NCBI GenBank assembly: GCA_012729555.1
Contig: JAAYCX010000020.1
Coordinates: 14,908 to 78,907 of the forward strand
Reading direction: 5' to 3'
Length of the DNA stretch: 64,000 nt
From: Acidobacteriota bacterium
GTDB taxonomy: Bacteria > Acidobacteriota > UBA6911
Shown piece after piece: positions 1 through 57,790 of the stretch. Below the pieces are notes generated by a model. That model was not told the DNA's origin. It made no database searches and saw only the letters and a list, made by a program, of their open reading frames with translations. The stretch's first letter is position 1. Every line of letters begins with the position of its first letter. Made by a program: the position numbers and the translations under genes.

Positions 1-783
1 GTCGCCATGACGCTGCTCAACCTCGCCAAGCGGACCGGCATCCCCGTCTTCCTCATCGGCCACGTCACCAAGGACGGCGCCATCGCGGGACCGAAGGCGC
101 TCGAGCACATCGTCGACGTCGTCCTCTATTTCGAGGGGGAGGGACGGCGCAACCACCGCATCGTCCGGGCGGTGAAGAACCGCTTCGGGGCGGCCAACGA
201 GGTCGGCATCTTCGAGATGACCTCCCGCGGCCTGGTCCCGGCCGCCAACCCCTCCGGCCTCTTTCTCCCCGACCGGGAGCTTTCGGCCGGCAGCTCGGTC
301 ATCTGCGCGATGGAGGGGACGCGGCCGCTCCTGGTCGAAATCCAGGCGCTGGTGGTCGCCACCCAGTACAGCACGGCGCGCCGCGTCGCCGACGGCGTCA
401 ACTACAACCGGATCTCGGTCCTGGTGGCGATGCTCGAAAAGCGGCTGGGAGTGCAGATGACGGGGAGCGACATCTACGTCAACACCGCCGGGGGGCTCGA
501 GGTGGACGAGCCCGCGGCCGACCTCGGCCTCTTCGCCGCCATCCTCGGCAGCCTGCGCAACCGCCCGCTGACCCCCGGGACCGTGCTCGTGGGGGAACTG
601 AGCCTGTCGGGCGACGTGCGCCCCGTCCCCCAGGCCCCCCTGAGGGTGCGCGAGGCGGCGGCCATGGGTTTCTCCCGCGTCCTCCTCCCCGCGGGGAACC
701 TCCCCCTCGTCGACCCCGTCGGCGGCATCGGGCTCGTGCCGATCGGGACGGTGGCGGAGCTCGCCGAGCTGATCTTCCCCTGA
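1..783 (+). CDS. radA: DNA repair protein RadA/Sms, C-terminal portion (5' end lies outside window)
   Basis: ORF 7..783 is open to the window edge; translation carries the RadA KNRFG motif (VKNRFGAANEVGIFEMT) and the Lon-protease-like C-terminal domain (GELSLSGDVRPV). Confidence 0.85.
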   Translation, partial: VAMTLLNLAKRTGIPVFLIGHVTKDGAIAGPKALEHIVDVVLYFEGEGRRNHRIVRAVKNRFGAANEVGIFEMTSRGLVPAANPSGLFLPDRELSAGSSVICAMEGTRPLLVEIQALVVATQYSTARRVADGVNYNRISVLVAMLEKRLGVQMTGSDIYVNTAGGLEVDEPAADLGLFAAILGSLRNRPLTPGTVLVGELSLSGDVRPVPQAPLRVREAAAMGFSRVLLPAGNLPLVDPVGGIGLVPIGTVAELAELIFP

Positions 784-7255: not shown

Positions 7256-8121
7256 AAGGCGGGGGGGGGGAAACATCGAAGGTGGTGCTCGGCTGCGTCG
7301 GCGCCGCCCTGGCCGCGGCGCTGCTGGTCGGCCCGGTGCAGGACTTCATCGACGCGCGCTCCCCGGCCGGGGAGGAGCCCGACCTCCTCTTCTTCAACTC
7401 CCCCGGCCTGGTCCAGAAGATGGCCCTCGGCTTCGAGCCCCTGCTGGCCGACCTCTACTGGATGCGCACCATCCAGTACTACGGGCGGCGCGACGACGAG
7501 GGGCGGCGGCGGGAGAGCTTCGGAAACCTCTACACCCTCCTCGACATCACCACCACCCTCGACCCGGGACTCCAGGACGCCTACCGCGCCGGGAGCTGCT
7601 TCCTCTCCGAGCCCCCGCCGGTCGGGGCGGGCCGGCCCGACCTGGCCCTCGAGCTCCTCAAGAAGGGGGCGCGGGCGCATCCCCGCGAGTGGCGCCTGGT
7701 CTACGAGCGGGGGTTCGTCCACTACCTCTACCTGAAGGACTACGCCGCCGCGGGGGACACCTGGCTCGAGGCGGGCCGGGTCCCCGGGGCGCCCGAGTGG
7801 CTCGCGGGCCTGGCGGCCATGGCGCTGTCGAAGGGGGGGGCCGAGGAGGTCGCCGTCGCCCTCTGGCGGCGCCAGTACGAGGAGGCGACGAGCGACGCGG
7901 TGCGCGACAACGCCCGCAACCACCTCCACTCGCTCCAGGTCAAGCGGGACCTCGCCGAGCTCAGGGACCGCATCGAGCGCCACCGCGCCGCGACCGGCTC
8001 CTTCCCCCCGAGCCTCCGGACCCCCCGGGACCCGATGGGGACCCCCTACGCCTACGACCCCCGCTCCGGCCGGGTGGAGCTCGACCCGGGGAGCGCCGTC
8101 CGCTTCCTCGACCTCCCCTGA
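7252..8121 (+). CDS. hypothetical membrane-anchored protein, translationally coupled to the ABC-2 permease
   Basis: ATG at 7252 overlaps the permease stop (ATGA); N-terminal hydrophobic anchor (VVLGCVGAALAAALLVG) followed by a helical soluble domain; no recognisable family. Confidence 0.5.
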   Translation: MKGGGGETSKVVLGCVGAALAAALLVGPVQDFIDARSPAGEEPDLLFFNSPGLVQKMALGFEPLLADLYWMRTIQYYGRRDDEGRRRESFGNLYTLLDITTTLDPGLQDAYRAGSCFLSEPPPVGAGRPDLALELLKKGARAHPREWRLVYERGFVHYLYLKDYAAAGDTWLEAGRVPGAPEWLAGLAAMALSKGGAEEVAVALWRRQYEEATSDAVRDNARNHLHSLQVKRDLAELRDRIERHRAATGSFPPSLRTPRDPMGTPYAYDPRSGRVELDPGSAVRFLDLP

Positions 8122-8174
8122 CCCATCATTTTTGTTTATTATCCCGAAATCCTATCCTATAGTCGATGCAGCTT

Positions 8175-8190
8175 CCATTTTCTAAAATGG
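8175..8190. promoter_or_regulatory. perfect 7-bp inverted repeat CCATTTT-CT-AAAATGG upstream of aqpZ
   Basis: Palindrome seen directly in sequence 27 nt upstream of the aqpZ start codon, inside an AT-richer leader. Confidence 0.3.
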
Positions 8191-8216
8191 CTGTATTCCG
8201 ACAAGGAGACTCCGCT

Positions 8217-8909
8217 ATGGGTAAGAAACTGGGCGCCGAATTCATCGGCACGTTCTGGCTCGTGCTCGGCGGCTGCGGCAGCGCGGTCCTGGCGGCCGCC
8301 TTCCCCGACCTGGGGATCGGCTTCGCCGGCGTGGCCCTGGCCTTCGGGCTGACCGTCCTGACCATGGCCTTCGCCATTGGCCACATCTCCGGCTGCCACC
8401 TCAACCCCGCCGTGTCCTTCGGGCTCTGGGCGGGCCGCCGCTTTCCCGGCAGGGACCTGTTCGGGTACATCGTGGCCCAGGTGCTGGGCGGCGCGCTCGC
8501 GGCCCTGGTCCTCTACCTCATCGCCAGCGGGAGCTCGGGCTTCAGCCTGAGCGGCGGGTTCGCCGCCAACGGGTACGGGGAGCATTCCCCCGGCGGGTAC
8601 GCGCTCGGGGCCGCTTTCCTGTGCGAGCTGGTGATGACGTTCATCTTCCTCATCGTCATCATGGGCGCGACCGACAAGCGGGCGCCGCAGGGGTTCGCCC
8701 CCATCGCCATCGGGCTGGCGCTGACGCTGATCCACCTGATCAGCATCCCGGTCACGAACACCTCGGTCAACCCCGCGCGCAGCACCAGCCAGGCGCTCTT
8801 CGTCCAGGGGTGGGCGCTCGCGCAGCTCTGGCTCTTCTGGCTCGCCCCCATCCTGGGCGCGCTCCTGGCGGGCCTCACCTACCGCGGGATTTTCGAGGAC
8901 AAGGCCTGA
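8217..8909 (+). CDS. aqpZ: aquaporin Z (MIP-family water channel)
   Basis: Two NPA boxes (HLNPAVS and SVNPARS), six TM helices; ATG 8217 with AAGGAG at 8204-8209. Confidence 0.9.
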
Positions 8910-8920
8910 CCCGAATGCAG

Positions 8921-8946
8921 GGAAGGGGGCCTCGGGGCCCCCTTCC
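8921..8946. terminator. GC-rich hairpin GGAAGGGGGCC-tcgg-GGCCCCCTTCC between convergent aqpZ and a GGDEF gene
   Basis: Perfect 11-bp stem with 4-nt loop read from the sequence 12 nt after the aqpZ stop; no U-tract. Could act bidirectionally. Confidence 0.4.
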
Positions 8947-8967
8947 GGTTCCCGCCGCCCCATACCC

Positions 8968-9015
8968 CCATTCCGTCAAATCATTTGACAGAATGGGGCC
9001 TATTCTGTCAAATCG
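8968..9015. repeat. cluster of three TTCYGTCAAAT(C) motifs (forward, reverse, forward)
   Basis: ttccgtcaaatc 8971-8982, atttgacagaa (reverse complement) 8984-8994, ttctgtcaaatc 9004-9015; lies in the convergent intergenic region; locally AT-richer. Confidence 0.45.
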
Positions 9016-9039
9016 TTGGACGAAATCGGGGGATGGAGC

Positions 9040-11334
9040 CTATTCCGCCATGGTCACGCGGTCGCGCCCGGCGTTCTTGCTGCGGTAAAGGGCCTTGTCG
9101 GCCGCCTCGACGAGCGCCTGGGCGCTGCGGCCGTGGTCGGGGAAGACGGCCACCCCCATCGACGCCGTGATGCGCCCCAGGGGGATGCCGCGGTAGTGGA
9201 CATCCAGGCGCTGGATCGCCTCCTTGAAGAACTCGGCCCGCTGCCGGGTGACGTCGCGGCTCCCCTCGGGCAGGATCAGGGTGAACTCCTCCCCCCCGTA
9301 ACGGCAGGCGATGTCCTCGCCGCGGATGTTGCCCCGCAGCAGCAGCCCCAGCTCCTTCAGCAGCAGGTCCCCCGCCTCGTGCCCGAAGTTGTCGTTGAAG
9401 TACTTGAAGTGGTCGAGGTCGATCATGATCATCCCCAGCGGGCGCTGGTTCCGGGCCGCCCGGCGCAGTTCCAGCTCGAGCGACTCCTCCATGAACCTCC
9501 GGTTGAAGAGCCCCGTCAGCGGGTCGCGGATCGACTGGCTGCGCAGCGTCTCGTGCAGGCGCAGGTTCGACAGCGCCATGGCGATGTGCTCCGACATGGT
9601 GACGGCCAGCCGCTGCTTGCTCTCGGTCATCTGGACGTCGTCCGGCTGCATGAGGTGCAGCATCCCGAGCGCCTCGCTCTGCGCCATCATCGGGATGCAC
9701 ATGTAGCCGGCCGGGGCGGGGTGGTGCACGTGGCGGCAGACCAGGCCGGAGCCCGCGTGCTCGACCCAGTGGATCCGCCCCCGCCGCAGCGCCCAGCATT
9801 CGGCCGGGGCGAAGGACTCCTCCGCCAGCTCCGGGTCCCCCCAGACCGCCGCGGCCTCCACCGAGTCGCGGGAGGAGGAGATGACGTAGAGCGCCCCCAC
9901 CTTCGCCGGGAAGATCTGCTGCGCCACCCGGACGATGGCGCCGTAGGCCTCCTCGGTCGTGAGGCAGGCGCGCAGGATGTCGCCCATCTCGTTGAGGAGG
10001 ACCATCTCGCGCGTCCGCTGCTCCAGCTCCCCCACCCAGGCCTCGAGCTTCTCCTTCGCCTCCTTCAGCTGCGCCTCGGTCTTCTTGCGCGCGGTGATGT
10101 CGCGCGCGATCCCCTGCACCGACACGGCCCTCCCCTCGCGGAAGAGGGGGCGGGTGCTGACCTCCAGGGCGACGCGGCCGCCGTCCTTGGCCACGATCTC
10201 CAGTTCGTAATTCAGGGGGATTTCGCCCGCCACCTGCGGGTCGGTCAGCACTTCCCCCAGGTGGGCGCACTCGGGCGTCAGGAGGTCGGTGAACTTCATC
10301 TCGAGCGCCTCGGAGCGGGTGTAGAGCGCGATCCGCTCGATCGCCCGGTTGATCGACAGGATCCTCCCCTCGAAGTCGTGGGTGTAGATGATGTCGCTGG
10401 CGTTTTCGAACATCTCCCGGTAGATCCCTTCGCGCTCCTTCCGTTCCCCGGTGCCGCTGCGGCGGAAATACTCCCCGGGGTTGCGGAAGATCTCGACCAG
10501 GCGCGGCTCCTGGTGCACCAGGGGGAGAAAATGGGCCCGCACCGCCGGGTGGAGTTCGCTCCCGATCTCCGGGTGCGCCTCCATCCACATGTGCTCCCCC
10601 CGGGCCGCGGCGAGCAGGAGCGTCAGCGAAAGGTACCAGGCGTCCCCCAGCAGGTCCTTCAGCCCCGCCGTCGCGCGCTCCGCCCCGGGGACCCCCAAAA
10701 AGAGGGCCAGGGCGAGGGTGGACACCCCCTCCTCGAACCCGGGGACGCCGGCGGGCCAGGATCCGGAGGAGCGTGTCGTGCCGGCCAGGGCCGAGAGCGC
10801 GTTTTCGATCTCCCCGGCGTCGGGCTCCGGGAGTTCCAGCAGTTCCCTCACCTCGCGCGCGCCGACCCCCAGCTCGCGCAGGGTGCACGCGTGCACCACG
10901 GCGAAATAGGGGGAGGTCGTCGAACGGGAGAGGCGCAGCCGGAGCTTCTCCCTGAAAAGCTCCGGGAGCGGGTTGTCGCAGAAGCCCGCACGGTACCGGC
11001 GCCAGAGGTCTTCGAGGATGTCGGGAAACTCGAGGGCGGGAATGAAGCAGGGGGGTAGGAAACCGATCCGCTCCTCGATCGCGGCGCGGATGCGGGAAGC
11101 GTCCCCGCCGGCGGCCGGGGGCGCGGGCGCGGCCTCCGGGGCGAGTTCCGGTTCCAGGCGCTTCAGCTCCTCGAGCTTCCCCCAGAGGGCTTCCAGTTCG
11201 CCGTCCGTGCTGCCTTCCCGTTCCATTGCGCGATGAACCCGAGTGAGTAGAGCCTGCCCGTGACGCACCAGCGACGACGCATCTTCGGTTTGCTTCATCA
11301 GGGGCGGGGGGAGCGCTGTTTGCCTGAAGGGCAA
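9040..11334 (-). CDS. PAS-GAF-GGDEF diguanylate cyclase (intact GGEEF active site and RxxD I-site)
   Basis: C-terminal GGDEF domain with RGEDIACRYGGEEF; upstream GAF and PAS segments. Start is uncertain: TTG at 11334 or ATG at 11298. Confidence 0.85.
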   Translation of the reverse strand: MPFRQTALPPPLMKQTEDASSLVRHGQALLTRVHRAMEREGSTDGELEALWGKLEELKRLEPELAPEAAPAPPAAGGDASRIRAAIEERIGFLPPCFIPALEFPDILEDLWRRYRAGFCDNPLPELFREKLRLRLSRSTTSPYFAVVHACTLRELGVGAREVRELLELPEPDAGEIENALSALAGTTRSSGSWPAGVPGFEEGVSTLALALFLGVPGAERATAGLKDLLGDAWYLSLTLLLAAARGEHMWMEAHPEIGSELHPAVRAHFLPLVHQEPRLVEIFRNPGEYFRRSGTGERKEREGIYREMFENASDIIYTHDFEGRILSINRAIERIALYTRSEALEMKFTDLLTPECAHLGEVLTDPQVAGEIPLNYELEIVAKDGGRVALEVSTRPLFREGRAVSVQGIARDITARKKTEAQLKEAKEKLEAWVGELEQRTREMVLLNEMGDILRACLTTEEAYGAIVRVAQQIFPAKVGALYVISSSRDSVEAAAVWGDPELAEESFAPAECWALRRGRIHWVEHAGSGLVCRHVHHPAPAGYMCIPMMAQSEALGMLHLMQPDDVQMTESKQRLAVTMSEHIAMALSNLRLHETLRSQSIRDPLTGLFNRRFMEESLELELRRAARNQRPLGMIMIDLDHFKYFNDNFGHEAGDLLLKELGLLLRGNIRGEDIACRYGGEEFTLILPEGSRDVTRQRAEFFKEAIQRLDVHYRGIPLGRITASMGVAVFPDHGRSAQALVEAADKALYRSKNAGRDRVTMAE
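9459..9592. repeat. about 130-bp segment roughly 95% identical to 11816..11949 (paralog gene conversion tract)
   Basis: Manual alignment of both gene segments (both encode MALSNLRLHETLRNQSIRDPLTGLFNR at the start of the GGDEF domain); only about 7 mismatches over about 130 nt. Confidence 0.7.
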
Positions 11335-11391
11335 TTCTGACCCAACTCCCCGGAAAGGCCAAGAAAAAAATGCGTTGGGGGGGAGCCGGCG

Positions 11392-13356
11392 TCAGCTGGC
11401 GACCACCACCGAGTCCCCGCCCCCCGAGCGCGCCCGGCCGACGGCCGCCTCCGCCGAGCGCAGGAGGGCCTCCACGGTCTGCCCGTGATCGGGGAAGAGG
11501 GCCATCCCGACCGACGCGGAGACCCGGTCCCCCTCCCGCGCCCCGGGATACTGCACGTCCATCCCCCGCACCAGGTCCCTCAGCGTCTCGGCCCGCCTCC
11601 GGCCGACGTCGCGGCCGCTGTGGGGAAGGAGCAGCACGAAAGCGTGCCCGCTGAAGCGGCAGGCGACGTCTCCCTTGCGGATCCTGGACTGCAGCCGCGC
11701 GGCGGTCCGGCAGAGGAGGGAGTCCCCGGCGTCGAGCCCCCAGTCTTCGGTCATTTTCTGGAACCGGTCGAGCGCGGCCATGATCACCACCAGCGTCCCC
11801 TGGGTGCGCGCCGCGCGCCGCAGCTCCAGCTCGAGCGCCTCCTCCATGAAGCTGCGGTTGAAGAGCCCGGTCAGCGGGTCGCGGATCGACTGGTTGCGCA
11901 GCGTCTCGTGCAGGCGCAGGTTCGACAGCGCCATGGCGACCCGCTCCCCCATGGCGGTCGCGAGCCGCTGCTTCGCTTCGCCGAGCGGCGTCCCGTCGGC
12001 GTGGGCCAGGTGGAGCACCCCCACCGCCTCGCTCTGGGCCATCATCGGGACGCAGAGGTAGCCGCGCGGAGGGGGGGTCTCCAGGTGCTTGCACAGGAGG
12101 CCGACGCCGGTGTCCTCCACCCAGTGCACCCTCCCCCGGCGCAGGGCCCAGCATTCGTCGGGGGTGAAGGTGGTCGCCATCCGCTCCGCGTCCCCCCACC
12201 CGGCGACCGATTCCACGATGTTGCGGAGCGGGCCCATCACGTAGAGCGCCCCCGCCTCCTCCGGAAAGATCTCCCGGGCGATCCGCACGATCACCTCGTA
12301 GACCTCCTCGGCCGTGAGGCAGGCGCGCAGGATGTCGCCCATCTCGCCGAGCAGCGTCATCTCGCGGGTGCGCTGCTCCAGGTCCCGCACCCAGGCCTCG
12401 AGCCTGCGGTTGGCCGCGGCGAGCTCCCCCTCGGCCCTCTTCCGCTCGCTGACGTCCCGGGCGATCCCCTGGATCCCGTGGGGGCGGCCTTCGCGGAAGA
12501 TGAGACGGTGGCTCACCTCGAAGGTGAAGCGGGCGCCGTCCTTGGCGATGACGTCCAGTTCGGCCGTCATCGGCACCGCGTCGGCGATCTGCCGGTCGAT
12601 CATCCTGCGGGCGGCCGCCCTCGATTCGGGGGCCACCAGCTGGCTGAACCGCATCCGGAGGGCCTCCTCCAGGGAGTATCCCAGCATCCGCTCCGCCGCC
12701 TTGTTCATGGAGGTGATTCTGCCGGAGAGGTCGTGGGTGTAGACCATGTCGTAGGCGTTTTCGAACAGTTCCCGGTAGCGCTCCTCGCTCGCGCGCCGCG
12801 CCTCCTCGGCCAGCGCCCGCTCGGTCACGTCGCGCACGATCGCCAGGCCCCCGATCACCTCCCCCTCCCCCGGGCCGTGGATGGGACCGTAGTACCCCTC
12901 GAACCAGACGCTCGCGCCCCCCGGGGCCGTGTAGCACTTCCCCTTCGAAACGCTCTTCCGCCCCTCGAGCGCCGCACCGATGTTCGCGTCCTCCCCCAGC
13001 TCCTCCAGGAAGGGGCAGGCCAGGAAGGCGGGGCGGCCGAGGACCTCCCCCGCGGCGAGGCCGAACATCCTCTCCATCGCGGGGTTCCAGACCGTGAAGA
13101 ACCCGTCCCGGTCGAAGGCGATGATGCCGTCGACGCTGCTGTCGACGAGCCACCCGAGGAGCTGTTTCTCGCTCTCGAGCGCGCGGACCCTGGCGGGGAC
13201 GGGGGGGCGCTCCGGGGCGCCGGCCGGGGCGGGGGGGGCGCTCGCGGCGCCGCTGGGGGACGGGCGCAGGATGAGGCTGTGCAGGTGCGCGATCTCCTCG
13301 CGCAGCGACTCCAGTTCCTCTGCAAGATCGCTCTTGGGCGTGTCTTTCGGTTCCAT
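11392..13356 (-). CDS. PAS-PAS-GAF protein with degenerate GGDEF domain (SGHAF in place of GGDEF; I-site RKGD retained)
   Basis: Tandem paralog of the downstream gene. Active-site pentapeptide is SGHAF, confirmed on DNA (agcgggcacgctttc read on the minus strand); the RxxD motif is present 5 residues upstream. Confidence 0.85.
   Translation of the reverse strand: MEPKDTPKSDLAEELESLREEIAHLHSLILRPSPSGAASAPPAPAGAPERPPVPARVRALESEKQLLGWLVDSSVDGIIAFDRDGFFTVWNPAMERMFGLAAGEVLGRPAFLACPFLEELGEDANIGAALEGRKSVSKGKCYTAPGGASVWFEGYYGPIHGPGEGEVIGGLAIVRDVTERALAEEARRASEERYRELFENAYDMVYTHDLSGRITSMNKAAERMLGYSLEEALRMRFSQLVAPESRAAARRMIDRQIADAVPMTAELDVIAKDGARFTFEVSHRLIFREGRPHGIQGIARDVSERKRAEGELAAANRRLEAWVRDLEQRTREMTLLGEMGDILRACLTAEEVYEVIVRIAREIFPEEAGALYVMGPLRNIVESVAGWGDAERMATTFTPDECWALRRGRVHWVEDTGVGLLCKHLETPPPRGYLCVPMMAQSEAVGVLHLAHADGTPLGEAKQRLATAMGERVAMALSNLRLHETLRNQSIRDPLTGLFNRSFMEEALELELRRAARTQGTLVVIMAALDRFQKMTEDWGLDAGDSLLCRTAARLQSRIRKGDVACRFSGHAFVLLLPHSGRDVGRRRAETLRDLVRGMDVQYPGAREGDRVSASVGMALFPDHGQTVEALLRSAEAAVGRARSGGGDSVVVAS
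11816..11949. repeat. partner copy of the about 130-bp near-identical tract at 9459..9592
   Basis: See 9459..9592. Confidence 0.7.
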
Positions 13357-22951: not shown

Positions 22952-24355
22952 GTGAAAACAGCTTCCCCGAACGCCGACTGGGCCGCGATCTTCCGCGGGC
23001 GACGCGACCGGATCCGGGCCCGGACCGGAGGCGGCCCGATCCTCTGGCTGGGGCACGCGCCCCAGCCGCGCAACTACGCCGCCAACACCTACCCCTTCCG
23101 GCAGAATTCCCATTTCCTCTACTGCACCGGGCTGGCCGAACCGGACCTCGCCCTCCTCTCGCTGCCGGAAGCGGGGCGCGACATCCTCTTCGGCGACGGG
23201 GCGAGCCTCGACGACATCGTCTGGACCGGCCCGCGCCCCTCGCTCGAGGAGCTGGCGGCCGCGGCCGGCATCGACGACGTCCGCCCGGCGGAGAGCCTCC
23301 GGGGAGTCCTCGACGAGGCGCGGCGGCAGGGGCAGCCCGTCCACTACCTCCCCCCCTACCGGCACTCCTCGGTCTACGCCCTCTCGCGCCTGCTCGACAT
23401 CCCGATGGAGGAAGTGGGGGGGCGCGCCTCCTCCCTCCTGATGGAGCAGGTGGCGATCGAGCGGAGCGTCAAGGGCCCCGAGGAGGTGGCCGAGATCGAG
23501 GAGGCGCTCGGGATCACCGGCCGGATGCACCGCGCGGCGATGGCGGCGGCGCGCCCCGGGATGAAGGAAAGCGAGCTGGCGGGCCTGATCCAGGCGATTG
23601 CCCTCGCCGAAGACCGCGCCCAGGCCTACGACCCGATCGTGACGGTGCACGGGGAGGTGCTGCACAACCACTCCTACGACAATGTCCTCGCCGCGGGGGG
23701 GCTGGTGCTCAACGACTCCGGGGCGGAGTCCCCGATGGGCTACGCTTCGGACATCACCCGCACCTTCCCCGTCTCCGGGCGCTTCTCGCCGCTCCAGGCC
23801 GACCTCTACCGCGCCGTGCTCGGGACGCAGCGGGAGGCCATCGCCATGATCCGCCCCGGCGTCTCCTACCGCGAAGTCCACCTCGGCGCCTGCCGCCGCC
23901 TGGCCGAAGCGCTCCGCGGCCTGGGGCTGATGAAGGGGGACCCCGCGGCCGCGGTCGAGGCGGGGGCCCACGCGCTCTTTTTGCCGCACGGGATCGGCCA
24001 CATGCTCGGGCTCGACGTGCACGACATGGAGGACCTCGGGGACGTGGTCGGGCACGGAAAGGAGAAGCGCCCGGGTCAGTTCGGGCTCAACTACCTGAGG
24101 CTCAGCCGCCCGCTCGAGGCGGGGTTCGTGCTGACGGTGGAGCCGGGGGTCTACTTCATCCCCGCCCTCATCGAGCGCTGGCGCGCCGAAGGGCTCCACC
24201 GGGAATTTCTCGACTACGACCGGATCGCCCCCCTGGCCGGCTTCGGGGGGATCCGCACCGAAGACGACGTCCTGGTCACCCCCGAAGGGGCCCGCGTCCT
24301 GGGCCCCCCGGTCCCGAAGACGGTCGAGGAGGTGGAGGAGGCGTGCGCCCGATGA
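22952..24355 (+). CDS. pepP: Xaa-Pro aminopeptidase (M24B family)
   Basis: GTG start 22952; M24 metal-binding segments (HGIGHMLGLDVHD, VEPGVYF) and the AMP_N domain. Confidence 0.85.
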   Translation: MKTASPNADWAAIFRGRRDRIRARTGGGPILWLGHAPQPRNYAANTYPFRQNSHFLYCTGLAEPDLALLSLPEAGRDILFGDGASLDDIVWTGPRPSLEELAAAAGIDDVRPAESLRGVLDEARRQGQPVHYLPPYRHSSVYALSRLLDIPMEEVGGRASSLLMEQVAIERSVKGPEEVAEIEEALGITGRMHRAAMAAARPGMKESELAGLIQAIALAEDRAQAYDPIVTVHGEVLHNHSYDNVLAAGGLVLNDSGAESPMGYASDITRTFPVSGRFSPLQADLYRAVLGTQREAIAMIRPGVSYREVHLGACRRLAEALRGLGLMKGDPAAAVEAGAHALFLPHGIGHMLGLDVHDMEDLGDVVGHGKEKRPGQFGLNYLRLSRPLEAGFVLTVEPGVYFIPALIERWRAEGLHREFLDYDRIAPLAGFGGIRTEDDVLVTPEGARVLGPPVPKTVEEVEEACAR

Positions 24356-24933: not shown

Positions 24934-24937
24934 AGGC

Positions 24938-26230
24938 ATGATCCGAAACAGCGGATTTTCAAGAATAACCATAGAGGGGAAAGTGATTACGCTTATTGAG
25001 GCCCTGAATTTCCGTTCCCTCAGGTACGTGCGCCAGAGCCTTGGCGGATTTCACGTCCTGATCGGACCCAATGCCAGCGGAAAGACCACTTTCCTGGATG
25101 TTCCCGCCTTCCTCGGCCGGCTCGTATCCGACGGCCTGGAATCGGCCGTCGGCGAGCGCACGGCGAATTTCCAGGATCTTGTATGGCGCCGTGAGGGGCA
25201 GAGATTCGAACTCGCCATCGAGGCGGCGATACCGGCAAAACTCCGGAAGACGGGGGGCAACGGGGATTTCGATACCATTCGCTACGAAGTCGCCGTCGGG
25301 GCCCATCCGCAAACGGAGGAGTTGTCGATACTGGCGGAAAGCGTTCTGCTCAGGAATGCCCCGGTCGCCGAACCTCCCCAGAGAGACTTTTTTCCTTTCC
25401 TGCGGACGCCCCCCAATACGATCCTGTCGCCGAAATCCTCCCGGGGCTCAAAAACCGTTATCCGGAAGGTAGCTAAAGGCAACGACAACTTTTACGACGA
25501 AACGGGGAAAGGCTGGGATCATTCCTTCAAACTTGGCCCGATGAAGAGCGCCCTGGGCAACCTCCCGGAAGACGAATCCAGATTCCCGGTTTCAAGCTGG
25601 CTCAAGGGGTTCCTGATCAACGGTCTGCAACAGATCATCCTCAACAGCCTGCTCATCCGGCGGGCCAGCCCGCCCGGACAAATCCGGGGATTCCGGCCGG
25701 ATGGCTCCAACCTCCCCTGGGTGATTTCCGAGCTCGAAAAAAAGGGTTCCCCTGTCCTGGGGGAATGGATCGCCCACCTGCGGACGGCCCTGCCCGATCT
25801 CGAGGGCATCCGTACCGTCGAGAGGGCGGATGACCGGCACCGTTACATGATGTTGAGGTACCGGGACGGGCTGGAAGTCCCTTCATGGATGGCGTCCGAC
25901 GGGACGCTCCGGCTGCTGGCATTGACACTGCCCGCGTATCTTCCGGAATTCAGGGGCGCCTACCTGATCGAGGAGCCGGAAAACGGCATCCATCCGCGCG
26001 CCGTGGAGACCCTGTTCCAGTCGCTCTCCTCCGTCTACGACGCCCAGATTCTGGTGGCCACCCACTCCCCCGTGATTTTGAGCATCGTCCGGCCGGAGGA
26101 TGTGCTCTGCTTCGCCAAAACAGAAGAGGGGGCCACCGATATCGTGCGCGGCAGCGAGCATCCGGCCCTCGCGGAATGGCGGGGGGAGACCAACCTGGGC
26201 GTCATCTTCGCCGCCGGAGTTCTGGGATGA
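24938..26230 (+). CDS. cytosolic ABC-type ATPase of the AAA_21 / OLD-like family
   Basis: Walker A GPNASGKTTFLD, signature-like SDGTLRLLALTL, Walker B AYLIEEPENGIHP, H-loop VATHSP; no TM segments. Alternative start GTG 24983 is preceded by GAGGGGA; lower GC than the flanks. Confidence 0.8.
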   Translation: MIRNSGFSRITIEGKVITLIEALNFRSLRYVRQSLGGFHVLIGPNASGKTTFLDVPAFLGRLVSDGLESAVGERTANFQDLVWRREGQRFELAIEAAIPAKLRKTGGNGDFDTIRYEVAVGAHPQTEELSILAESVLLRNAPVAEPPQRDFFPFLRTPPNTILSPKSSRGSKTVIRKVAKGNDNFYDETGKGWDHSFKLGPMKSALGNLPEDESRFPVSSWLKGFLINGLQQIILNSLLIRRASPPGQIRGFRPDGSNLPWVISELEKKGSPVLGEWIAHLRTALPDLEGIRTVERADDRHRYMMLRYRDGLEVPSWMASDGTLRLLALTLPAYLPEFRGAYLIEEPENGIHPRAVETLFQSLSSVYDAQILVATHSPVILSIVRPEDVLCFAKTEEGATDIVRGSEHPALAEWRGETNLGVIFAAGVLG

Positions 26231-26886
26231 AGGCCGAGGCGCCCGGCAAGGACCTCATCGCCCTGGTCGCCGACAAGAATATGGAACACGCCCTGCGGGG
26301 CCTGCTGAATCGTCACGAATCTCTGGGAATCCGTCCACTAAGAGAAAAAAGGGACTACGACATATTCGTACACCCGCACAGGGATCCGGGCTGCCTGGCA
26401 AAATCCACCGAATTCCTTCGGCCCTGGCAGCGGACCTATCGCCGGGCCCTGGTGATGTTTGACCGGGAAGGCTGTGGCCGGGAAGCCCAATCGCGCCTCG
26501 AACTCGAAAGCGAGCTCGAGCAGCAGCTGGCGCGATCGGGATGGGACGAACGGGCGGCGGTGGTGATCATCGACCCGGAGCTGGAAAACTGGGTGTGGAG
26601 CAGCTCGCCTCTCGTGGATCGGGCGCTGGGCTGGACAGGACGGTCCCCCGACCTCCGCCAATGGCTCCTGGATGAAGGCTTTCTGAAATCAGCCGCGGAG
26701 GCGAAGCCCGCGCCCCCCAAACCGGCCATGGATCGAGCCCTGAGGATGGGGAAAAAACCGCATTCATCCTCGCTGTTCCAGCAGCTTGCCGAGACGGTTT
26801 CGCTTTCGGGATGCACCGACGACGCCTTCCTGAAGCTCAGGCAGATCCTGATCGGCTGGTTTCCGCTGTCGGCGTCGGAAAATTGA
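26227..26886 (+). CDS. uncharacterised 219-aa partner of the AAA_21 ATPase (possible divergent Toprim/RloB/DUF4276-like effector)
   Basis: ATG 26227 overlaps the ATPase stop (ATGA); alternating hydrophobic-strand and acidic motifs (LIALVADKNMEH, ALVMFDREG, VVIIDPELENW); no confident family by eye; low-GC DNA. Confidence 0.55.
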   Translation: MKAEAPGKDLIALVADKNMEHALRGLLNRHESLGIRPLREKRDYDIFVHPHRDPGCLAKSTEFLRPWQRTYRRALVMFDREGCGREAQSRLELESELEQQLARSGWDERAAVVIIDPELENWVWSSSPLVDRALGWTGRSPDLRQWLLDEGFLKSAAEAKPAPPKPAMDRALRMGKKPHSSSLFQQLAETVSLSGCTDDAFLKLRQILIGWFPLSASEN

Positions 26887-26914
26887 TGACTCTCCCGGGC
26901 TGATGCCGTCCCGT

Positions 26915-51268: not shown

Positions 51269-52810
51269 TCAGGGAGTCTTCTTCTGCGCCTTCGCCGCCT
51301 CCATCATGCGGGTGAGCGGCCCGATATCGAAGCGGGTGCGGCTGTGCATCCCGCCGTCCCTCATGTCGACCTCCACCGTCATCTTCCCCGACAGCGGGGG
51401 GAGCGCCCCGGCGCCGGCACCCGGGGGCGCCAGCGTCCGGATCCCGGCGAAAAGCGCGCCGAGGTCGATCTCCATCAGGGAGGTGGGGCCCGCGGCGGGC
51501 ACGGGCGCCAAGGCGGCCGTGCGCGCCGCCAGGTCGGCGATCCCGGCGTCGCTCGAGGCGAAGAGGAGGAGGTCGCCCGAGGCCGCCATCCTCATCTCGA
51601 GAGGGACCTTTTCGAGCGGGTTGTCCCCCGCCCCGGTCCCGGGGAGCGCCCCGGGGTTCATCCGCAGCCCCACGACCCGCAGCCCGGCCACGGTGCTATC
51701 GGCCGTCCGCTCGTAAAGCGCTCCCGCCGGCGCCTGATCCTCTGCCGCGGCCAGCGCCGCCACCCGCCCGGCGTAGCGGTCCAGGAAGGGGAGATAGGTT
51801 TTGTCGATATACGCGTCGCCGTCGACCCCCGGGCGCAGGACGTAGATCCCCCTCATCGCGATCCCCTCCCGGTCGATCCGCATCCCGCCGGACATTTCGC
51901 CGGTGAACGCTTCGGCCAGCGCCGAGAGTTCCCCCGGATCGAAGCCGAGCCGGCGGTAGAGGCGCCCGTAAACCAGCTCGGCCAGTTCCATCATCCCCGA
52001 CATCTCCGGGGCGCGCGAGCGGAAGCGCAGCGGCATGTCGGCGGCCACCTCGCCCAACCGCATCTCCCCGCCGGGGTCGACGAAGAGGCGCCCGAGCGCC
52101 GTGTCCCGGCCCGCCTCGACGTCCAGGACCAGCGACAGGGCCTCCCCCTCCACCTCCATCCCCAGGCGCAGCGTCTCCGCCTGCCCGAGGAGGCCCAGCA
52201 TGTCGCCCATCATGGCCCGGATCTCCTCGGGGGGGATCGCGGCGGCCCCGGGCGCCCGAGGAGCCGGCTCCGCTTCCCCGATCTTCGCGAGCGCCGCGTC
52301 GAGCTGGGGCTTCATCCGGGCCGCCATGAGGGCGGCGGGAATCTCGAGCACCAGGTTGGCCGGCGGCCGGACGGCCGAGGCCCGCACGAGCGCCTGCTCG
52401 AGGGCCGGGTCCACGGCCTGGGGCGCCCCCGGCCTGGGCGGGAAGGAGAGAAGGTAGTACCCTTCCCGCGCGGCGGCGCCGAAGGCCGCCTGGAACTGCG
52501 GGTTGGGGGCGGCGTACGGGACCAGCGCCACCAGCGCGGGGCTCGGCCCCCCTTCGAGCACCCCGGCCACCACCGGGCGCGCGGGGTCGAGCCACCCGGT
52601 CCCCCCGACGAGGGCGCGCAGCATCCCCACCTGGGCCCGGACGGGCGAATCGGCCGGGGTCAGGGCCTCCACGTCCCGGATCAGCCGCTCCACGTCCCCG
52701 ATTTTGACGAGGAGCGGGGGCTCCGCGGCCCCGGCCGCGGGGAGGAAGACTCCTGCGGCCAGGGTGAAAAGCAGGCAAAGGACGGCGCACCGGCATCTCT
52801 GGTCAGGCAT
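51269..52810 (-). CDS. hypothetical exported Ala/Gly/Pro-rich protein
   Basis: Signal peptide AVLCLLFTLAAGVFLPAAGAA; no recognisable domain; AT-rich promoter region at 52811-52910. Confidence 0.5.
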   Translation of the reverse strand: MPDQRCRCAVLCLLFTLAAGVFLPAAGAAEPPLLVKIGDVERLIRDVEALTPADSPVRAQVGMLRALVGGTGWLDPARPVVAGVLEGGPSPALVALVPYAAPNPQFQAAFGAAAREGYYLLSFPPRPGAPQAVDPALEQALVRASAVRPPANLVLEIPAALMAARMKPQLDAALAKIGEAEPAPRAPGAAAIPPEEIRAMMGDMLGLLGQAETLRLGMEVEGEALSLVLDVEAGRDTALGRLFVDPGGEMRLGEVAADMPLRFRSRAPEMSGMMELAELVYGRLYRRLGFDPGELSALAEAFTGEMSGGMRIDREGIAMRGIYVLRPGVDGDAYIDKTYLPFLDRYAGRVAALAAAEDQAPAGALYERTADSTVAGLRVVGLRMNPGALPGTGAGDNPLEKVPLEMRMAASGDLLLFASSDAGIADLAARTAALAPVPAAGPTSLMEIDLGALFAGIRTLAPPGAGAGALPPLSGKMTVEVDMRDGGMHSRTRFDIGPLTRMMEAAKAQKKTP

Positions 52811-52910
52811 GGCTCCTCCCGAAGGAATATGACAAGTCTTATATCATATTTCCATGATTCCAAAAACCGCGCGCTTAACAAGAGCCGTTGGGTTGAGCGG
52901 ACCTTTTGGC

Positions 52911-53813
52911 CTAAAATTTCGCGATTTCAATCTTACGCATTTGCATCATGTTGGCGAACGCGTGCGGTTTGTTCATCAGTTCTTCCATGTTCGCCGGGAC
53001 CACCTGCCAGCTGACACCGAATCTGTCTTTGCTCCAGCCGCACTGCTCCGCCCCCGGTACCGCCGAGAGTTTTTCCCAGAAGTAATCGATCTCGGCCTGA
53101 TCCTGACACGCGATCGACAGGGAAATCGCTTCGTTGAAGTTGAAGTCATGCTCGACCCCGCTGTCCATCGCCGCGAACCATTGGCCTGCCAACGTGAAGT
53201 CGGCGAACATCAGCGACCCTGACCTGGCCGGACCGGTATCGTCCGCATAACGGGCGAGCGTGCCCAACCTGGCGTCTTCGAATACGGACAGATAATGATG
53301 GATCGCTTCCTCTGCGCGGTTGTTGTTTTCGCCTGAGAACATCAGCGACGGTATGACGAAGGGACGCGGCTCGCCGGCGGGGTCGGTCAAAATCAGCTGC
53401 CACGTCAGCCCGTAGCGGTCCTTGACCCAGCCATAGCGTTTGCTGAAGGGATAGGCCCCCAACGGCATGAGGGCCTCGCCGCCGTCGATGAGTCTGTTCC
53501 ACAGCTCCTCGAGGTGCTCGCCCGCCCGCCCGTCACGCGACGGGTCGAAATTCAGCATGAACGAAATCGATGGGTTGAATGCAAACTCCGGCCCGGCGTT
53601 GATGGCCACAAACCGAAACCCCCCGACTTCGAAGTCGACGGTCAGCACCTTGCCGGCCAGCCCGAGCTGAAACGCCGCCAACCCCTCCTCGGCGCTTTTC
53701 GGGTAATAAATAGTGGAACCCACCTTGCCCTCCGGAAACGCCGACGCGTAAAAACCGGCCGCTTCCTGGGCATTGCCATCGAACCACAAATTCGGAGTGA
53801 TTTTCTGTTGCAT
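52911..53813 (-). CDS. tandem-domain VOC/PhnB-like (3-demethylubiquinone-9 3-methyltransferase-domain) protein
   Basis: Two PhnB-like halves (ITPNLWFDGNAQEAAGFY... and FTLAGQWFAAMDSG...); ATG 53813 preceded by AAGGAGG; lower GC. Confidence 0.6.
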   Translation of the reverse strand: MQQKITPNLWFDGNAQEAAGFYASAFPEGKVGSTIYYPKSAEEGLAAFQLGLAGKVLTVDFEVGGFRFVAINAGPEFAFNPSISFMLNFDPSRDGRAGEHLEELWNRLIDGGEALMPLGAYPFSKRYGWVKDRYGLTWQLILTDPAGEPRPFVIPSLMFSGENNNRAEEAIHHYLSVFEDARLGTLARYADDTGPARSGSLMFADFTLAGQWFAAMDSGVEHDFNFNEAISLSIACQDQAEIDYFWEKLSAVPGAEQCGWSKDRFGVSWQVVPANMEELMNKPHAFANMMQMRKIEIAKF

Positions 53814-53870
53814 GACGCCCTCCTCCTTCATGCTCCTGTCACTCCATGATACCAGATGCGGGATCAGCTC

Positions 53871-53899
53871 TTTGCCCTGGTCCGTCCCCGTTTTTTTAT
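53871..53899. repeat. copy A of 28/29-nt repeat TTTGCCCTGGTCCGTCCCCGTTTTTT(T)AT
   Basis: Identical core to copy B at 55612..55639; overlaps the hipA stop codon (53896-53898). Confidence 0.65.
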
Positions 53900-56766: not shown

Positions 56767-56942
56767 GGCTCTCCATCCCTGTTCGTTTGAATTTGTCATC
56801 CGGAACGCTCCCTGCTCTTTTTGACGGATATTCACGTCCGCCGGAAGTGTACCACGAAGGGGCGGTTTCCCCTGTGCCCACAAATGGGGTATAATAAGAC
56901 TGGTTGTTAGACTAGTTGATACTTTGCGGGAGGGAAGCGGCC

Positions 56943-57188
56943 GTGAAGACCATAGGGGCTTTTGACGCCAAAACGAACCTCAGCCGGCTGCTGAGGGAGG
57001 TGGAAGTCGACCGGGAGGTGTTTGTCATCGAACGCAACCGGAGGAAGGTGGCTACCCTGGTTCCCTACCGCGAAGGGAACCGGGCGGCATCGGAATCGAT
57101 CGTGGAGCGTTTTCGCCGGCTCCGCGCCCGCGGCGGAAGCGACGCCACCCCGGTCAAAGAGCTCATTTCGGAAGGGAGAAAGCGATGA
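56943..57188 (+). CDS. Phd/YefM-family antitoxin (VapB-like)
   Basis: 81 aa from GTG 56943 (VKTIGAFDAKTNLSRLLREVEVDREVFVIERNRRKVATLVP...), a typical Phd N-terminus; TTG 56916 is an alternative start; 4-nt overlap with vapC. Confidence 0.65.
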   Translation: MKTIGAFDAKTNLSRLLREVEVDREVFVIERNRRKVATLVPYREGNRAASESIVERFRRLRARGGSDATPVKELISEGRKR

Positions 57189-57607: not shown

Positions 57608-57790
57608 ACCTCTTATTCTCAGTGCCTTACTTCGGTTCGGCGTATTGATGTAGACCCTTTCCGTCTTCATTGCTGACAACCATGCAGGTGATCCGAATCT
57701 CTTCACCCGTTCTTTTGATGAACCCTTTGCTTTCGAGAAAGGAAACCTCCTGCTCGTATTTTTCCCGGCTCCACTGGTTGCTATTCATAT

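Follow-up and report, generated by a model that had tools for sequence, protein, structure and literature searches.

We analysed a 64-kb stretch of DNA from an acidobacterium (the window), in which two overlapping genes encode a MAD3-like ABC ATPase and a MAD4-like Toprim protein. By analogy with PARIS, AbiL and HEC-01, we propose that the locus is a horizontally acquired module that works autonomously and in which an ATPase regulates a Toprim nuclease, a reading to which we give a probability of about 0.6. The stand-alone pair would probably serve as a small, independent defence module. MAD3 and MAD4 belong to the Methylation-Associated Defence System (MADS), which comprises eight genes over ~22 kb (Maestri et al., 10.1101/2023.03.30.534895; later Cell Host Microbe 2024). 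The two proteins score above the MAD3 and MAD4 cut-offs, and both MAD proteins are required for MADS defence, which supports reading the pair as a defence module. Judged by sequence comparison, the relatedness to MAD3 and MAD4 places the pair in an already known family, and the stand-alone arrangement is a variant outside MADS. If the pair is active alone, a two-gene system of hundreds of environmental species would join the ABC-ATPase/Toprim defences, and MAD3–MAD4 would become the probable module that supplies the nuclease effector of MADS. The 2-kb minimal version would then be far easier to handle biochemically than the ~22-kb, eight-gene system.

A low-GC islet with two overlapping genes

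The earlier note had described two open reading frames joined by an ATGA overlap; both are present on the plus strand, and the overlap lies where claimed (Table 1). The 4-nt overlap implies translational coupling of the two genes. The note had also offered a GTG at 24983 as an alternative start for gene 1, and this proved to be the correct start, rather than the ATG at 24938. Both the alignment with MAD3 of MADS and the NCBIfam model begin at the GTG, and the top 120 homologues are mostly 413–422 aa long, with 415 aa as the commonest length. In addition, in a relative that is 94% identical (L007), the ATG reads ACG and GAGGGGAAAGTG is perfectly conserved; the 40 nt upstream of GAGGGGAAAGTG diverge. 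The ribosome-binding site of gene 2 may, as an additional constraint, contribute to the invariance of the AGVLG at the C-terminus of gene 1.

Table 1. Features of the gene pair and its surrounding islet, in window coordinates
Feature	Position	Strand	Remark
Low-GC islet, ~2 kb, pair as sole content	24934..26914		between LOG-family gene and trpS
Shine-Dalgarno-like GAGGGGA before gene 1 GTG start	24974..24980	+	read from sequence
Gene 1, MAD3-like ABC ATPase, 415 aa	24983..26230	+	SMC/Rad50/OLD-type head
Walker A GPNASGKT of gene 1	25064-25087	+	
Signature-like SDGTLR of gene 1	25895-25912	+	
Walker B LIEE of gene 1	25964-25975	+	
H-loop His361 of gene 1	26063-26065	+	
GGAG ribosome-binding site of gene 2	26216..26219	+	within final gene 1 codons; 7 nt before ATG at 26227
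ATGA, gene 2 start codon overlapping gene 1 stop codon	26227..26230	+	read from sequence
Gene 2, MAD4-like, 219 aa	26227..26886	+	Toprim + helical domain as in OLD catalytic C-terminal region
D16 (in LVAD) of gene 2	26272-26274	+	candidate active site, conserved
D53, E81 of gene 2		+	candidate active site, conserved
D79 (in FDREG) of gene 2	26461-26463	+	candidate active site, conserved
E118 and E120 (in DPELENW) of gene 2	26578-26586	+	candidate active site, conserved
K165 of gene 2	26719-26721	+	candidate active site, conserved

The islet is bordered by the stop of the LOG-family gene at 24933 and the end of the convergent trpS at 26915. Its GC content is 61.4%, compared with 69.5% in the remaining window, and the third-position GC of the pair is 0.74–0.76, compared with 0.86–0.96 in neighbouring genes. 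The GC content of the pair was also below that of the flanks in 72 of 75 homologous loci. The gene pair was apparently acquired horizontally, from elsewhere. We found no direct or inverted repeats flanking the pair as cassette boundaries, no promoter-like site for it, and no shared k-mers upstream or downstream of it across 72–80 loci. To look for an empty site, we searched metagenome contigs for exact copies of a 33-mer taken from the LOG-gene 3' end and obtained no match; LOG relatives on 80 contigs showed at most 61% identity and no shared PepP or TrpS synteny. The gene upstream of the pair lay on the same strand in 37 cases and on the opposite strand in 19 by a crude gene caller, so that co-orientation is suggestive only. 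An NCBIfam scan of the neighbouring genes at 14.9–34.7 kb returned housekeeping families only. Further toxin–antitoxin islets are present in the window. The only RNA gene called there was one dubious tRNA at a long distance from the pair, and Rfam families were not matched anywhere in the window.

The ATPase and its Toprim partner

Gene 1 had been read as an AAA_21/ABC ATPase with neither a membrane domain nor an adjacent permease. Consistent with this, Pfam AAA_21 (PF13304) matched at 1.7e-27 with the motifs intact, AF2 predicts a soluble head that is SMC/Rad50-like, and the pair is flanked by the LOG-family gene and trpS. All motifs quoted in the earlier note for both genes were found in the translations and are invariant or nearly so in homologues, far beyond chance; the nucleotide-binding motifs of gene 1 are intact and all invariant. 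The head most closely resembles SMC and Rad50, and a long coiled coil of the Rad50/SMC kind is absent from the model. The fold groups with SMC, Rad50, PtuA, AriA, GajA and OLD, apart from the transporters; clustering with transporter ATPases, which had been named as a refuting outcome, was thus not what we observed. Sequence matches of gene 1 to solved structures (PtuA, OLD and AriA) were confined to the C-terminal Walker B/H-loop segment. Against the NCBIfam MAD3 equivalog NF047739, gene 1 scored 502.7 bits (cut-off 420). The identity of the ATPase across phyla was 67–80%, an unusual level for a protein that would sense phage proteins, which evolve fast.

The predicted fold of gene 2 (pLDDT 93.9) is that of the Toprim-plus-helical catalytic region of OLD nucleases, and two independent structure-comparison methods identified the OLD catalytic region. 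By secondary-structure order, D16, D79, E81, E118, E120 and K165 correspond to BpOLD E400, D455, D457, T506/E508 and K562, and by the order of structural elements E20 corresponds to E404. At least 98% of the 121 members of the stand-alone clade have D16, D79, E118, E120 and K165, and 95 of the 121 have E81. These candidate catalytic residues, E81 included, are conserved in the stand-alone and MADS clades alike. Gene 2 departs from the Toprim signature in having Asp for the canonical Glu and D79-x-E81 (DxE) for DxD; the Asp that the earlier note had pointed out in place of the first-strand Glu is D16. No solved structure was found for gene 2 by sequence.

The suggestion that gene 2 is an uncharacterised or new partner family did not survive, because it scored 241.8 bits against the NCBIfam MAD4 equivalog NF047734, above the curated cut-off of 160; its sole PADLOC match was mad4 (3.8e-7). 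The suggested likeness to DUF4276 held as a distant one: PF14103 matched residues 63–129 at 13.6 bits (E 0.083), short of the gathering threshold of 30.2. DUF4276 was the only Pfam family with recurrent matches in the clade (E ≤ 1 for 31 of 121 members; best 6.1e-5). These profile scores make gene 2 a distant DUF4276 relative and not a member by the Pfam criterion. DUF4276, of which Mad4 is cited as a homologue, and RloB have both been placed in the Toprim superfamily.

We then compared the pair with other ATPase-coupled systems. Gene 2 shares the catalytic-region fold with OLD (P2 Old; class 2 Bp/Xcc OLD, PDB 6NK8 and 6NJW; Ts OLD, 6P74). However, the pair splits the functions over two polypeptides, whose ORFs are separated by a stop codon, and gene 2 carries the Asp and DxE in place of the invariant Glu and DxD; it showed no detectable sequence similarity to the Toprim_Old and OLD models. 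In PARIS, the ABC ATPase AriA is paired with AriB, a DUF4435 Toprim nuclease, whereas gene 2 matched neither the DUF4435 nor the AriB profile. The AriA model PDLC02980 (304 positions) covers the same gene 1 residues as Pfam AAA_21, and the match therefore looks generic. In addition, PARIS is typically found on phages and satellites, whereas the pair family is absent from viral collections. In AbiL and RloA-RloB, an AAA_21 ATPase is paired with the Toprim-like RloB, often in type I R-M loci. Gene 1 matched AbiLi at 1.1e-19, whereas gene 2 matched neither RloB (PF13707) nor AbiLii, and one of 121 clade members touched RloB (E 0.014).

HEC-01A of the Hma-embedded PADLOC candidate HEC-01 (10.1101/2024.01.29.577857) was the best PADLOC match of gene 1, at 1.6e-40 over nearly the full length. 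HEC-01 has the same ABC ATPase plus TOPRIM architecture, with an OLD-like metal site in the partner, and sits as a pair within a larger system, as MAD3–MAD4 does in MADS. Nevertheless, gene 2 matched no HEC-01B model at E ≤ 1. HEC-01 gave no protection against the tested phages in E. coli (10.1101/2024.01.29.577857). PD-T4-4, considered as an ATPase with a DUF4276 protein, was rejected as a candidate, since the literature places it among the PD-(D/E)XK systems and gene 2 had no such PADLOC match. PADLOC holds no profile for the stand-alone clade beyond the weak mad3 and mad4 matches. Overall, the profile-search, PADLOC and fold-comparison checks that the earlier note had proposed resolved the proteins as MAD3-like and MAD4-like, with an OLD-type fold for gene 2.

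Stand-alone pairs and MADS

In P. aeruginosa, mad3 and mad4 are each genetically required for MADS defence, and deletion of mad5 is possible only when mad2 or mad3 is lost as well (10.1101/2023.03.30.534895), indicating that toxicity requires MAD3. A mad3 deletion strain was used to grow the plasmids that served as methylated stock; mad3 is therefore evidently dispensable for methylation. The MacSyFinder model of MADS requires MAD6 (kinase), MAD7 (DptG-like) and MAD8 (HerA-like ATPase) with at most 10 intervening genes, and treats MAD3 and MAD4 as accessory, not always detected; the system was reported in Proteobacteria and Actinobacteria (10.1101/2023.03.30.534895). According to a 2026 review, the restriction mechanism of MADS is still unknown.

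Like the present pair, MAD3 and MAD4 are adjacent, in the same gene order and with a 4-nt overlap (MADS operons L006 and L091). Gene 1 and gene 2 share 35% full-length identity with MAD3 and MAD4 of a verified operon, and gene 2 has D16, D53, D79, PELE, K165, C196 and W211 in common with MAD4. However, mad2 and mad5 directly flank mad3–mad4 in MADS operons, whereas the pair stands without either. When all eight proteins of one verified operon were used as tblastn queries against the window, MAD3 and MAD4 alone were matched. The best E value for MAD6, MAD7 and MAD8 was 0.36, and those for MAD2 (N6-adenine methyltransferase) and MAD5 (specificity subunit) exceeded 1. As the other six genes (MAD1, MAD2 and MAD5 to MAD8) are absent from the window, the locus is not a MADS system; with no methyltransferase or specificity subunit, there is no methylation-based self/non-self marking in cis. 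A true MADS pair scored 547.5 (MAD3) and 233.2 bits (MAD4) on the same NCBIfam models. The models thus do not separate stand-alone from true MADS pairs. These equivalogs would lead annotations to name such genes 'methylation-associated' with no methylation system nearby.

We next examined homologous pairs in other genomes. The ATPase gene was immediately upstream at 79 of the 80 best genome loci, and the 80th started too near the contig end for this to be judged. No homologues of MAD2, MAD5, MAD7 or MAD8 were found within 10 kb in these 80 loci, which span many phyla. Of 72 homologous loci whose ATPase is intact, 64 have retained the 4-nt overlap. The ATPase was disrupted in 10 of 82 loci (~12%), and copies with a broken ATPase and an intact MAD4 exist. 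The stand-alone MAD4s form a separate clade, with ~54% identity within it and ~37% to MADS-operon MAD4, and E20, H49, C56 and G82-C83 are conserved in this clade only; all four MADS-type MAD4 members inspected lay in full operons. Among 185,579 species-representative genomes, stand-alone pairs accounted for 531 of 550 pattern matches, with ~1,700 clusters at 50% identity. They occur mostly in Acidobacteriota, Planctomycetota, Chloroflexota, Desulfobacterota and Bacillota, that is, mainly in phyla other than those of MADS. No conserved third gene emerged when ORFs within 4 kb were clustered across 83 loci, the commonest family occurring in 7. As to the defence-island context raised in the earlier note, some copies adjoin defence-like genes, and 5 of 8 Pfam-annotated contexts, the window included, contained housekeeping genes only.

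Mobile elements such as phages and plasmids carry many defence systems. Viral, phage and plasmid collections barely hold the stand-alone clade: we found no relatives of the pair in 2.9 million viral contigs or in 50,697 phage records. In a set of 72,556 plasmids, gene 2 matched a Piscinibacter MADS plasmid only, and gene 1 matched the same plasmid and an orphan ATPase on a Geoalkalibacter plasmid. This near-absence counts against the proposed reading of the pair, as do the contexts with housekeeping genes only, the high identity of the ATPase across phyla, the lack of protection by HEC-01, and the Asp and DxE of gene 2.

Proposed mechanism and competing explanations

The mechanism that we propose is modelled on the split or fused ABC-ATPase/Toprim systems OLD, PARIS AriA–AriB and Gabija GajA. 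The gene 1 and gene 2 proteins would form a complex, in which the ATPase would act as sensor and regulator. An infection-associated protein or aberrant nucleic acid may serve as the trigger that releases or opens the metal-dependent nuclease. Gene 2 would then cut nucleic acid, either DNA or tRNA as in OLD and PARIS, and the cleavage would stop phage replication or the infected cell.

We weighed this mechanism against four other explanations. The pair could be a selfish toxin–antitoxin addiction module, in which the ATPase restrains a nuclease toxin that kills losers of the pair rather than protecting against phages. The pair is a compact, promoter-less cassette that lies singly in housekeeping operons and lacks mobility genes, which would fit this explanation, as would the Pfam text for AAA_21 ('putative AbiEii toxin, Type IV TA system' domain), the broken-ATPase copies with intact MAD4 and the other toxin–antitoxin islets of the window. 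We nevertheless consider it unlikely, because plasmids, on which addiction modules flourish, almost lack the pair, and phage defence requires the homologous MAD3 and MAD4. Moreover, loci in which the nuclease is intact although the ATPase is disrupted argue that the free nuclease is not constitutively lethal, and toxin–antitoxin and abortive-infection roles can coexist. A housekeeping role in repair or processing, as for SbcCD, Rad50–Mre11 or the RNase M5-type Toprim maturases, would suit the SMC/Rad50-like head, the very high conservation of the ATPase across phyla, the mostly housekeeping neighbours and the absence of the family from phages. Such a role is quite improbable given the patchy spread, neighbours that differ in nearly every lineage (commonest family in 7 of 83 loci), a GC content systematically below that of the host flanks and disrupted copies at ~12% of loci. 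In addition, the closest characterised relatives are defence genes, and the model lacks the long coiled coil of the Rad50/SMC kind.

It is very unlikely that the pair is a detached MADS part, acting in trans with mad1, mad2 and mad5–8 elsewhere, or a decaying remnant. The equivalog models do name both proteins MAD3 and MAD4, the authors' own detection model treats these as accessory, and the visible genome is 64 kb only. However, the eight tblastn queries recovered MAD3 and MAD4 alone in the window, MAD2, MAD5, MAD7 and MAD8 were missing within 10 kb at the other loci examined, and the four inspected MADS-type members were all in full operons. The stand-alone clade is also separate in identity (~54% within, ~37% to MADS-type MAD4) and has its own conserved H49, C56 and C83. 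Finally, gene 1 might have been the ATPase subunit of an ABC transporter with its permease elsewhere, in view of its generic ABC motifs and weak NCBIfam matches to transporter ATPases (E 0.006 to 0.09). The position of its fold among SMC, Rad50, PtuA, AriA, GajA and OLD, and the pairing of its homologue with a gene 2 homologue in the best genome loci, effectively refute this explanation.

Going further, the stand-alone pair could be a widespread system that provides defence autonomously, and MADS itself a composite, in which a copy of this ATPase–Toprim module was captured between methyltransferase and specificity genes. We regard this extension as possible but rather doubtful. The captured module would be comparable to the PrrC, RloAB and HEC pairs embedded in type I R-M or Hma loci, and in MADS it may be the toxic effector or a guard of the methylation complex. 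The dependence of mad5 deletion on the loss of mad2 or mad3 is consistent with such a capture. In a composite MADS, the stand-alone clade would sense something other than methylation, and sensing might involve the H49, C56 and C83 cluster near the active site together with a highly conserved ATPase insert.

The one apparent fusion of both domains, an 825-aa protein (P0471), was considered as a sign that the two proteins interact and rejected, as it ends in 230 R/P/S-rich, junk-like residues; it is probably a frameshifted contig artefact.

Family assignment and gene boundaries

The product of gene 1, the ATPase gene, matched the NCBIfam model NF047739 ('methylation-associated defense system AAA family ATPase MAD3') at 502.7 bits (cut-off 420; E 1e-150), and that of gene 2, its downstream partner, matched NF047734 (MAD4) at 241.8 bits (cut-off 160; E 7e-72). 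The PADLOC mad3 and mad4 models gave weaker matches (2.4e-29 and 3.8e-7), and the top PADLOC match of gene 1 was HEC-01A (1.6e-40). The NCBIfam assignment of the two proteins to MAD3 and MAD4 is unambiguous. The suggestion in the earlier note that gene 2 might represent a new partner family was therefore wrong, because the assignment and the published description of the Methylation-Associated Defence System (MADS) already cover it. In the supplementary notes on MADS, Mad3 is likened to AbiEii, its HHpred matches being OLD-like, and Mad4 is likened to DUF4276 (10.1101/2023.03.30.534895); a 2025 paper placed DUF4276, with Mad4 cited, and RloB in the Toprim superfamily (PMC12065111).

The two forward-strand open reading frames and their ATGA overlap at 26227-26230 were both present as the earlier note had described, and all of the motifs it quoted were found in the translation. 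However, it had preferred an ATG at 24938 as the start of gene 1 and offered a GTG as the alternative; the alternative was retained and the ATG, located 4 nt past the stop of the upstream LOG-family gene, was not, because four results favor the GTG. The NCBIfam MAD3 model starts at residue 16 of the ATG form; the alignment of MAD3 from a genuine MADS operon begins at 24983; homologues (top 120) are mostly 413–422 aa long with a mode of 415, the length obtained from the GTG; and the closest relative, an Acidobacteria MAG colinear with the window across 20.6 kb (94% identical in gene 1), carries ACG in place of the ATG while GAGGGGAAAGTG is perfectly conserved. The pair begins 49 nt beyond the LOG-family gene on the same strand and no promoter-like site was found, so that read-through from the host operon may supply its transcription. 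A crude gene call across loci gave an upstream neighbour oriented like the pair 37 times and oriented against it 19 times.

Coordinates of the pair and of other features (window positions unless a locus is named)
Feature	Position	Strand	Detail
Gene 1	24983-26230	+	415 aa, GTG start
Gene 2	26227-26886	+	219 aa
GGAG			7 nt upstream of gene 2 start
Gene 2 residue 49	26371-26373		
Gene 2 residue 56	26392-26394		
Gene 2 residue 83	26473-26475		
Gene 2 residue 196	26812-26814		
Xaa-Pro peptidase/LOG-family gene overlap	24343-24355		13 nt
Phd/YefM antitoxin and PIN-domain VapC-like toxin	56916-57607	+	PF02604, 2.6e-9; PF01850, 2.8e-9; 4-nt overlap; low-GC islet
Lowest GC of the window	~57400-57900		0.53; directly downstream of the Phd/PIN pair; no ORF called, no Rfam match
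Third low-GC islet	52551-55149	-	
HipA-like kinase toxin	53896-55149	-	HipA_C, 6e-49; in third islet
VOC-like protein	52911-53831	-	two 3-dmu-9_3-mt domains; adjoins HipA-like gene
Adjacent PAS-GGDEF genes	9040-13356 (9040-11334, 11392-13356)	-	diguanylate cyclase-type
ARAGORN 'tRNA-???'	487-578	-	four-base anticodon; within RadA-like ORF at window start
Pair locus on metagenomic contig (L095)	4054-8829		
Orphan ATPase locus, Geoalkalibacter subterraneus plasmid pGSUB1 (L090)	8001-13042		

Predicted folds of the two proteins

Gene 1 matched Pfam AAA_21 end to end (1.7e-27), and its AF2 model (pLDDT 86.5) showed an SMC/Rad50-type ABC head. That gene 1 encodes a transporter ATPase is extremely improbable: in the fold comparison, transporter ATPase domains reached only 11.6 or less, and Walker A (GPNASGKT), the signature-like SDGTLR, Walker B (LIEE) and the H-loop His were invariant among 53 homologues. 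Together, these results dispose of the transporter alternative. At E<=1e-10, the relatives of gene 1 number more than 7,800, and ATPase identity across phyla is 67–80%, insert included.

Gene 2 matched nothing in Pfam above threshold (13.6 bits for DUF4276, whose gathering score is 30.2), and a sequence search of the PDB found no relative. Its AF2 model (pLDDT 93.9) consisted of b1-a1-b2-a2-b3-a3-b4 followed by a helical domain. The top Foldseek match was the C-terminal region of Xanthomonas OLD (probability 0.99, TM-score 0.51–0.53, full length), with no other credible match. The structural intuition of the earlier note, which had loosely compared gene 2 with Toprim-type partners, was good. 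Asp at the position of the expected Toprim Glu was also read correctly: D16 lies directly past b1. E20 follows, D79-x-E81 lies past b3, E118 and E120 open the first helix past b4, and K165 starts a helix in the helical domain. The two-metal site of Bp OLD comprises E400, E404, D455, D457, T506/E508 and K562 (PMC6755086); judging by the order of structural elements, D16, E20, D79-x-E81, E118, E120 and K165 would correspond to these residues. Across 121 close homologues, conservation of D16, D79, E118, E120 and K165 was at least 98%, and the MADS-type clade conserves these five residues too.

Stand-alone pairs and their genomic contexts

MADS was described in P. aeruginosa as an eight-gene operon of ~22 kb, in which mad2-4 and mad6-8 are each required for defence and for which the detection model of its authors makes MAD6-8 mandatory (10.1101/2023.03.30.534895). 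We located a complete operon on a Piscinibacter gummiphilus plasmid, with 8/8 proteins above the NCBIfam MAD1–MAD8 cut-offs, and compared its proteins with the window. MAD3 and MAD4 matched (both 35% identity; E 8e-72 and 3e-33), whereas the best E among MAD1, MAD2, MAD5, MAD6, MAD7 and MAD8 was 0.36. The neighbours are ccmF, ccmA, ccmB, ccmC, an aldehyde:ferredoxin oxidoreductase, the Xaa-Pro peptidase and the LOG-family gene upstream, and trpS, a GWxTD-domain gene, rmlD, smpB, pepA and pdxA downstream. Because the mandatory MAD6-8 were not found in the window, the pair does not qualify as MADS, and the methylation genes are likewise missing. That is, the pair belongs to the MAD3 and MAD4 protein families without being a MADS system. 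The genuine MADS pair scored 547.5 and 233.2 bits with the same models; these scores are essentially equal to those of the window, and therefore the NCBIfam 'equivalog' models cannot separate stand-alone from MADS pairs. Pipelines using NF047739 and NF047734 would name hundreds of orphan pairs 'methylation-associated' without a nearby methyltransferase.

In a scan of 185,579 species-representative genomes, 550 stretches fit the peptide pattern and 531 of them encoded a gene 2 relative. The best 80 of the 531 were 49–57% identical to gene 2 (the closest relative excepted) and came from Acidobacteriota, Planctomycetota, Chloroflexota, Desulfobacterota, Bacillota, Nitrospinota, Armatimonadota and others. 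A gene 1 homologue, 42–72% identical (94% in the closest relative), lay directly upstream in 79 of these 80 loci, the 80th beginning too near a contig end to show the upstream gene. MAD2, MAD5, MAD7 and MAD8 homologues were found within 10 kb in none of the 80, and MAD6 matches, in three, were confined to the generic kinase domain. MAD4 sequences found with the Piscinibacter query formed a second group; median identity was 54% in the stand-alone group, 67% in the MADS group and 37% between them, and all four MADS-type members whose context was inspected were ordered MTase-ATPase-MAD4-S-kinase-MAD7-MAD8. E20, H49, C56 and G82-C83 are near-invariant in the stand-alone clade, compared with A20, D49, V56, W82 and E/D83 in the MADS clade; C196 is common to both. 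H49, C56 and C83 occupy the edge of the Toprim sheet where the active site lies and, with C196, could provide a further site for metal binding or redox chemistry.

When 1.84 billion representative proteins were searched with a profile, 1,694 clusters passed E<=1e-3, and 649 passed E<=1e-30. Two word-index-limited searches gave at least 570 protein clusters for the stand-alone form and 91 for the MADS-type form, so that the former appears to be the more widespread. A literature search, which covered the MADS paper as a preprint, found no description of stand-alone MAD3-MAD4 pairs. We regard the pair as a stand-alone, minimal form of the MAD3-MAD4 module.

The 4-nt overlap was retained in 64 of 72 stand-alone loci, and the GC content of the pair was below that of its flanks in 72/75 (mean 6.3 points); in the window it was 61.4% against 69.5%, with third-position GC of ~0.75 against ~0.93. 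The ATPase gene was split, truncated or frameshifted beside an intact MAD4-like gene in 10 of 82 loci (L003, L011, L014, L016, L046, L052, L057, L060, L078 and L079). This could reflect assembly error or real decay; decay would suggest that the ATPase is costly or that the free nuclease does no harm. No conserved third gene was found near the pair, the commonest neighbour family occurring in 7/83 loci. Five of eight Pfam-annotated contexts were housekeeping only (the window, L001, L003, L096 within a beta-oxidation operon and L097 among menaquinone genes). The other three had defence-like neighbours: an nSTAND/AAA protein with an S8 peptidase, an SMC-like ATPase with an SLFN/AlbA_2 protein and an MmeI-type R-M enzyme in L004; a second AAA_15 ATPase pair in L094; and a 977-aa N6-methylase gene in L095, 1.2 kb beyond a 61-aa ORF. 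In L095 the pair starts 4 nt past gyrB, and the 61-aa ORF that comes next has a faint GyrB C-terminal match, as if the 3' end of gyrB had been duplicated or displaced by insertion.

Searches of 2.9 million viral contigs and of 50,697 phage records found no family member, and on 72,556 plasmids the family was almost absent. The plasmid pGSUB1 carries an orphan ATPase, 37% identical to gene 1, without a MAD4-like partner; an Eco57I-type methylase, a NERD-like nuclease and another methyltransferase follow, so that here the ATPase family may be paired differently, with R-M genes.

Possible mechanism and role, and other features of the window

By analogy with the OLD/PARIS/AbiL/HEC-01 class of ABC-ATPase and Toprim modules, like which the pair would work, an ATPase-controlled Toprim nuclease is the best-supported mechanism. 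Translational coupling would yield the two proteins in a fixed ratio; they would probably form a complex, and its ABC ATPase may sense a trigger and govern access to the nuclease. Mechanisms of this kind are established in relatives of the same architecture. In PARIS, AriB is bound by AriA, is set free when a phage protein acts as the trigger, and then cleaves tRNA (PMC11464382); P2 Old is a tRNase opened when its tetramer is destabilised (10.64898/2026.07.10.737580); and class 2 OLD enzymes cleave DNA by two-metal catalysis (PMC6755086). We infer a defence function for the pair and, from such analogies, complex formation, trigger, substrate (DNA or tRNA) and phenotype. The 67–80% identity of the ATPase and the absence from mobile-element collections are difficult to reconcile with the sensing of phage proteins that evolve rapidly; a conserved ligand (nucleic-acid structure or host complex) seems the more likely trigger. 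The pair differs from each relative: compared with OLD nucleases in the strict sense, it is split and has Glu-to-Asp and DxE instead; DUF4435 of PARIS and RloB of AbiL/RloAB were not found in it; gene 2 falls below the DUF4276 threshold; and HEC-01, the nearest PADLOC candidate of the same architecture, reportedly gave no protection in E. coli and has a component, HEC-01B, that the pair does not match.

The genetics of MADS, whose restriction mechanism was still listed as unknown in 2026, fit MAD3 (with MAD4) as a harmful effector. mad5 could be deleted only together with mad2 or mad3, and the methylated plasmid stock came from a mad3 deletion strain (10.1101/2023.03.30.534895); tolerance of losing the specificity subunit thus depended on the absence of mad2 or mad3, and methylation evidently does not require mad3. 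Tentatively, the pair may be an autonomous system that MADS captured as an effector or guard module. A MADS part acting in trans, or a MADS remnant, is very improbable given the separation of the clades and the stand-alone contexts. A compact, promoter-less insertion into operons is compatible with a toxin-antitoxin-like addiction cassette; however, rarity on plasmids makes this unlikely. A housekeeping repair or processing nuclease would agree with the genomic contexts and sequence conservation, but the patchy distribution, GC shift and disrupted copies render it quite unlikely.

Elsewhere in the window, the ARAGORN tRNA is almost certainly a false positive, with no supporting Rfam tRNA match. 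The HipA-like and VOC-like genes have third-position GC of 0.73–0.78 against ~0.93 elsewhere. The two PAS-GGDEF genes appear clearly paralogous from the long common stretches judged by eye in their translations.
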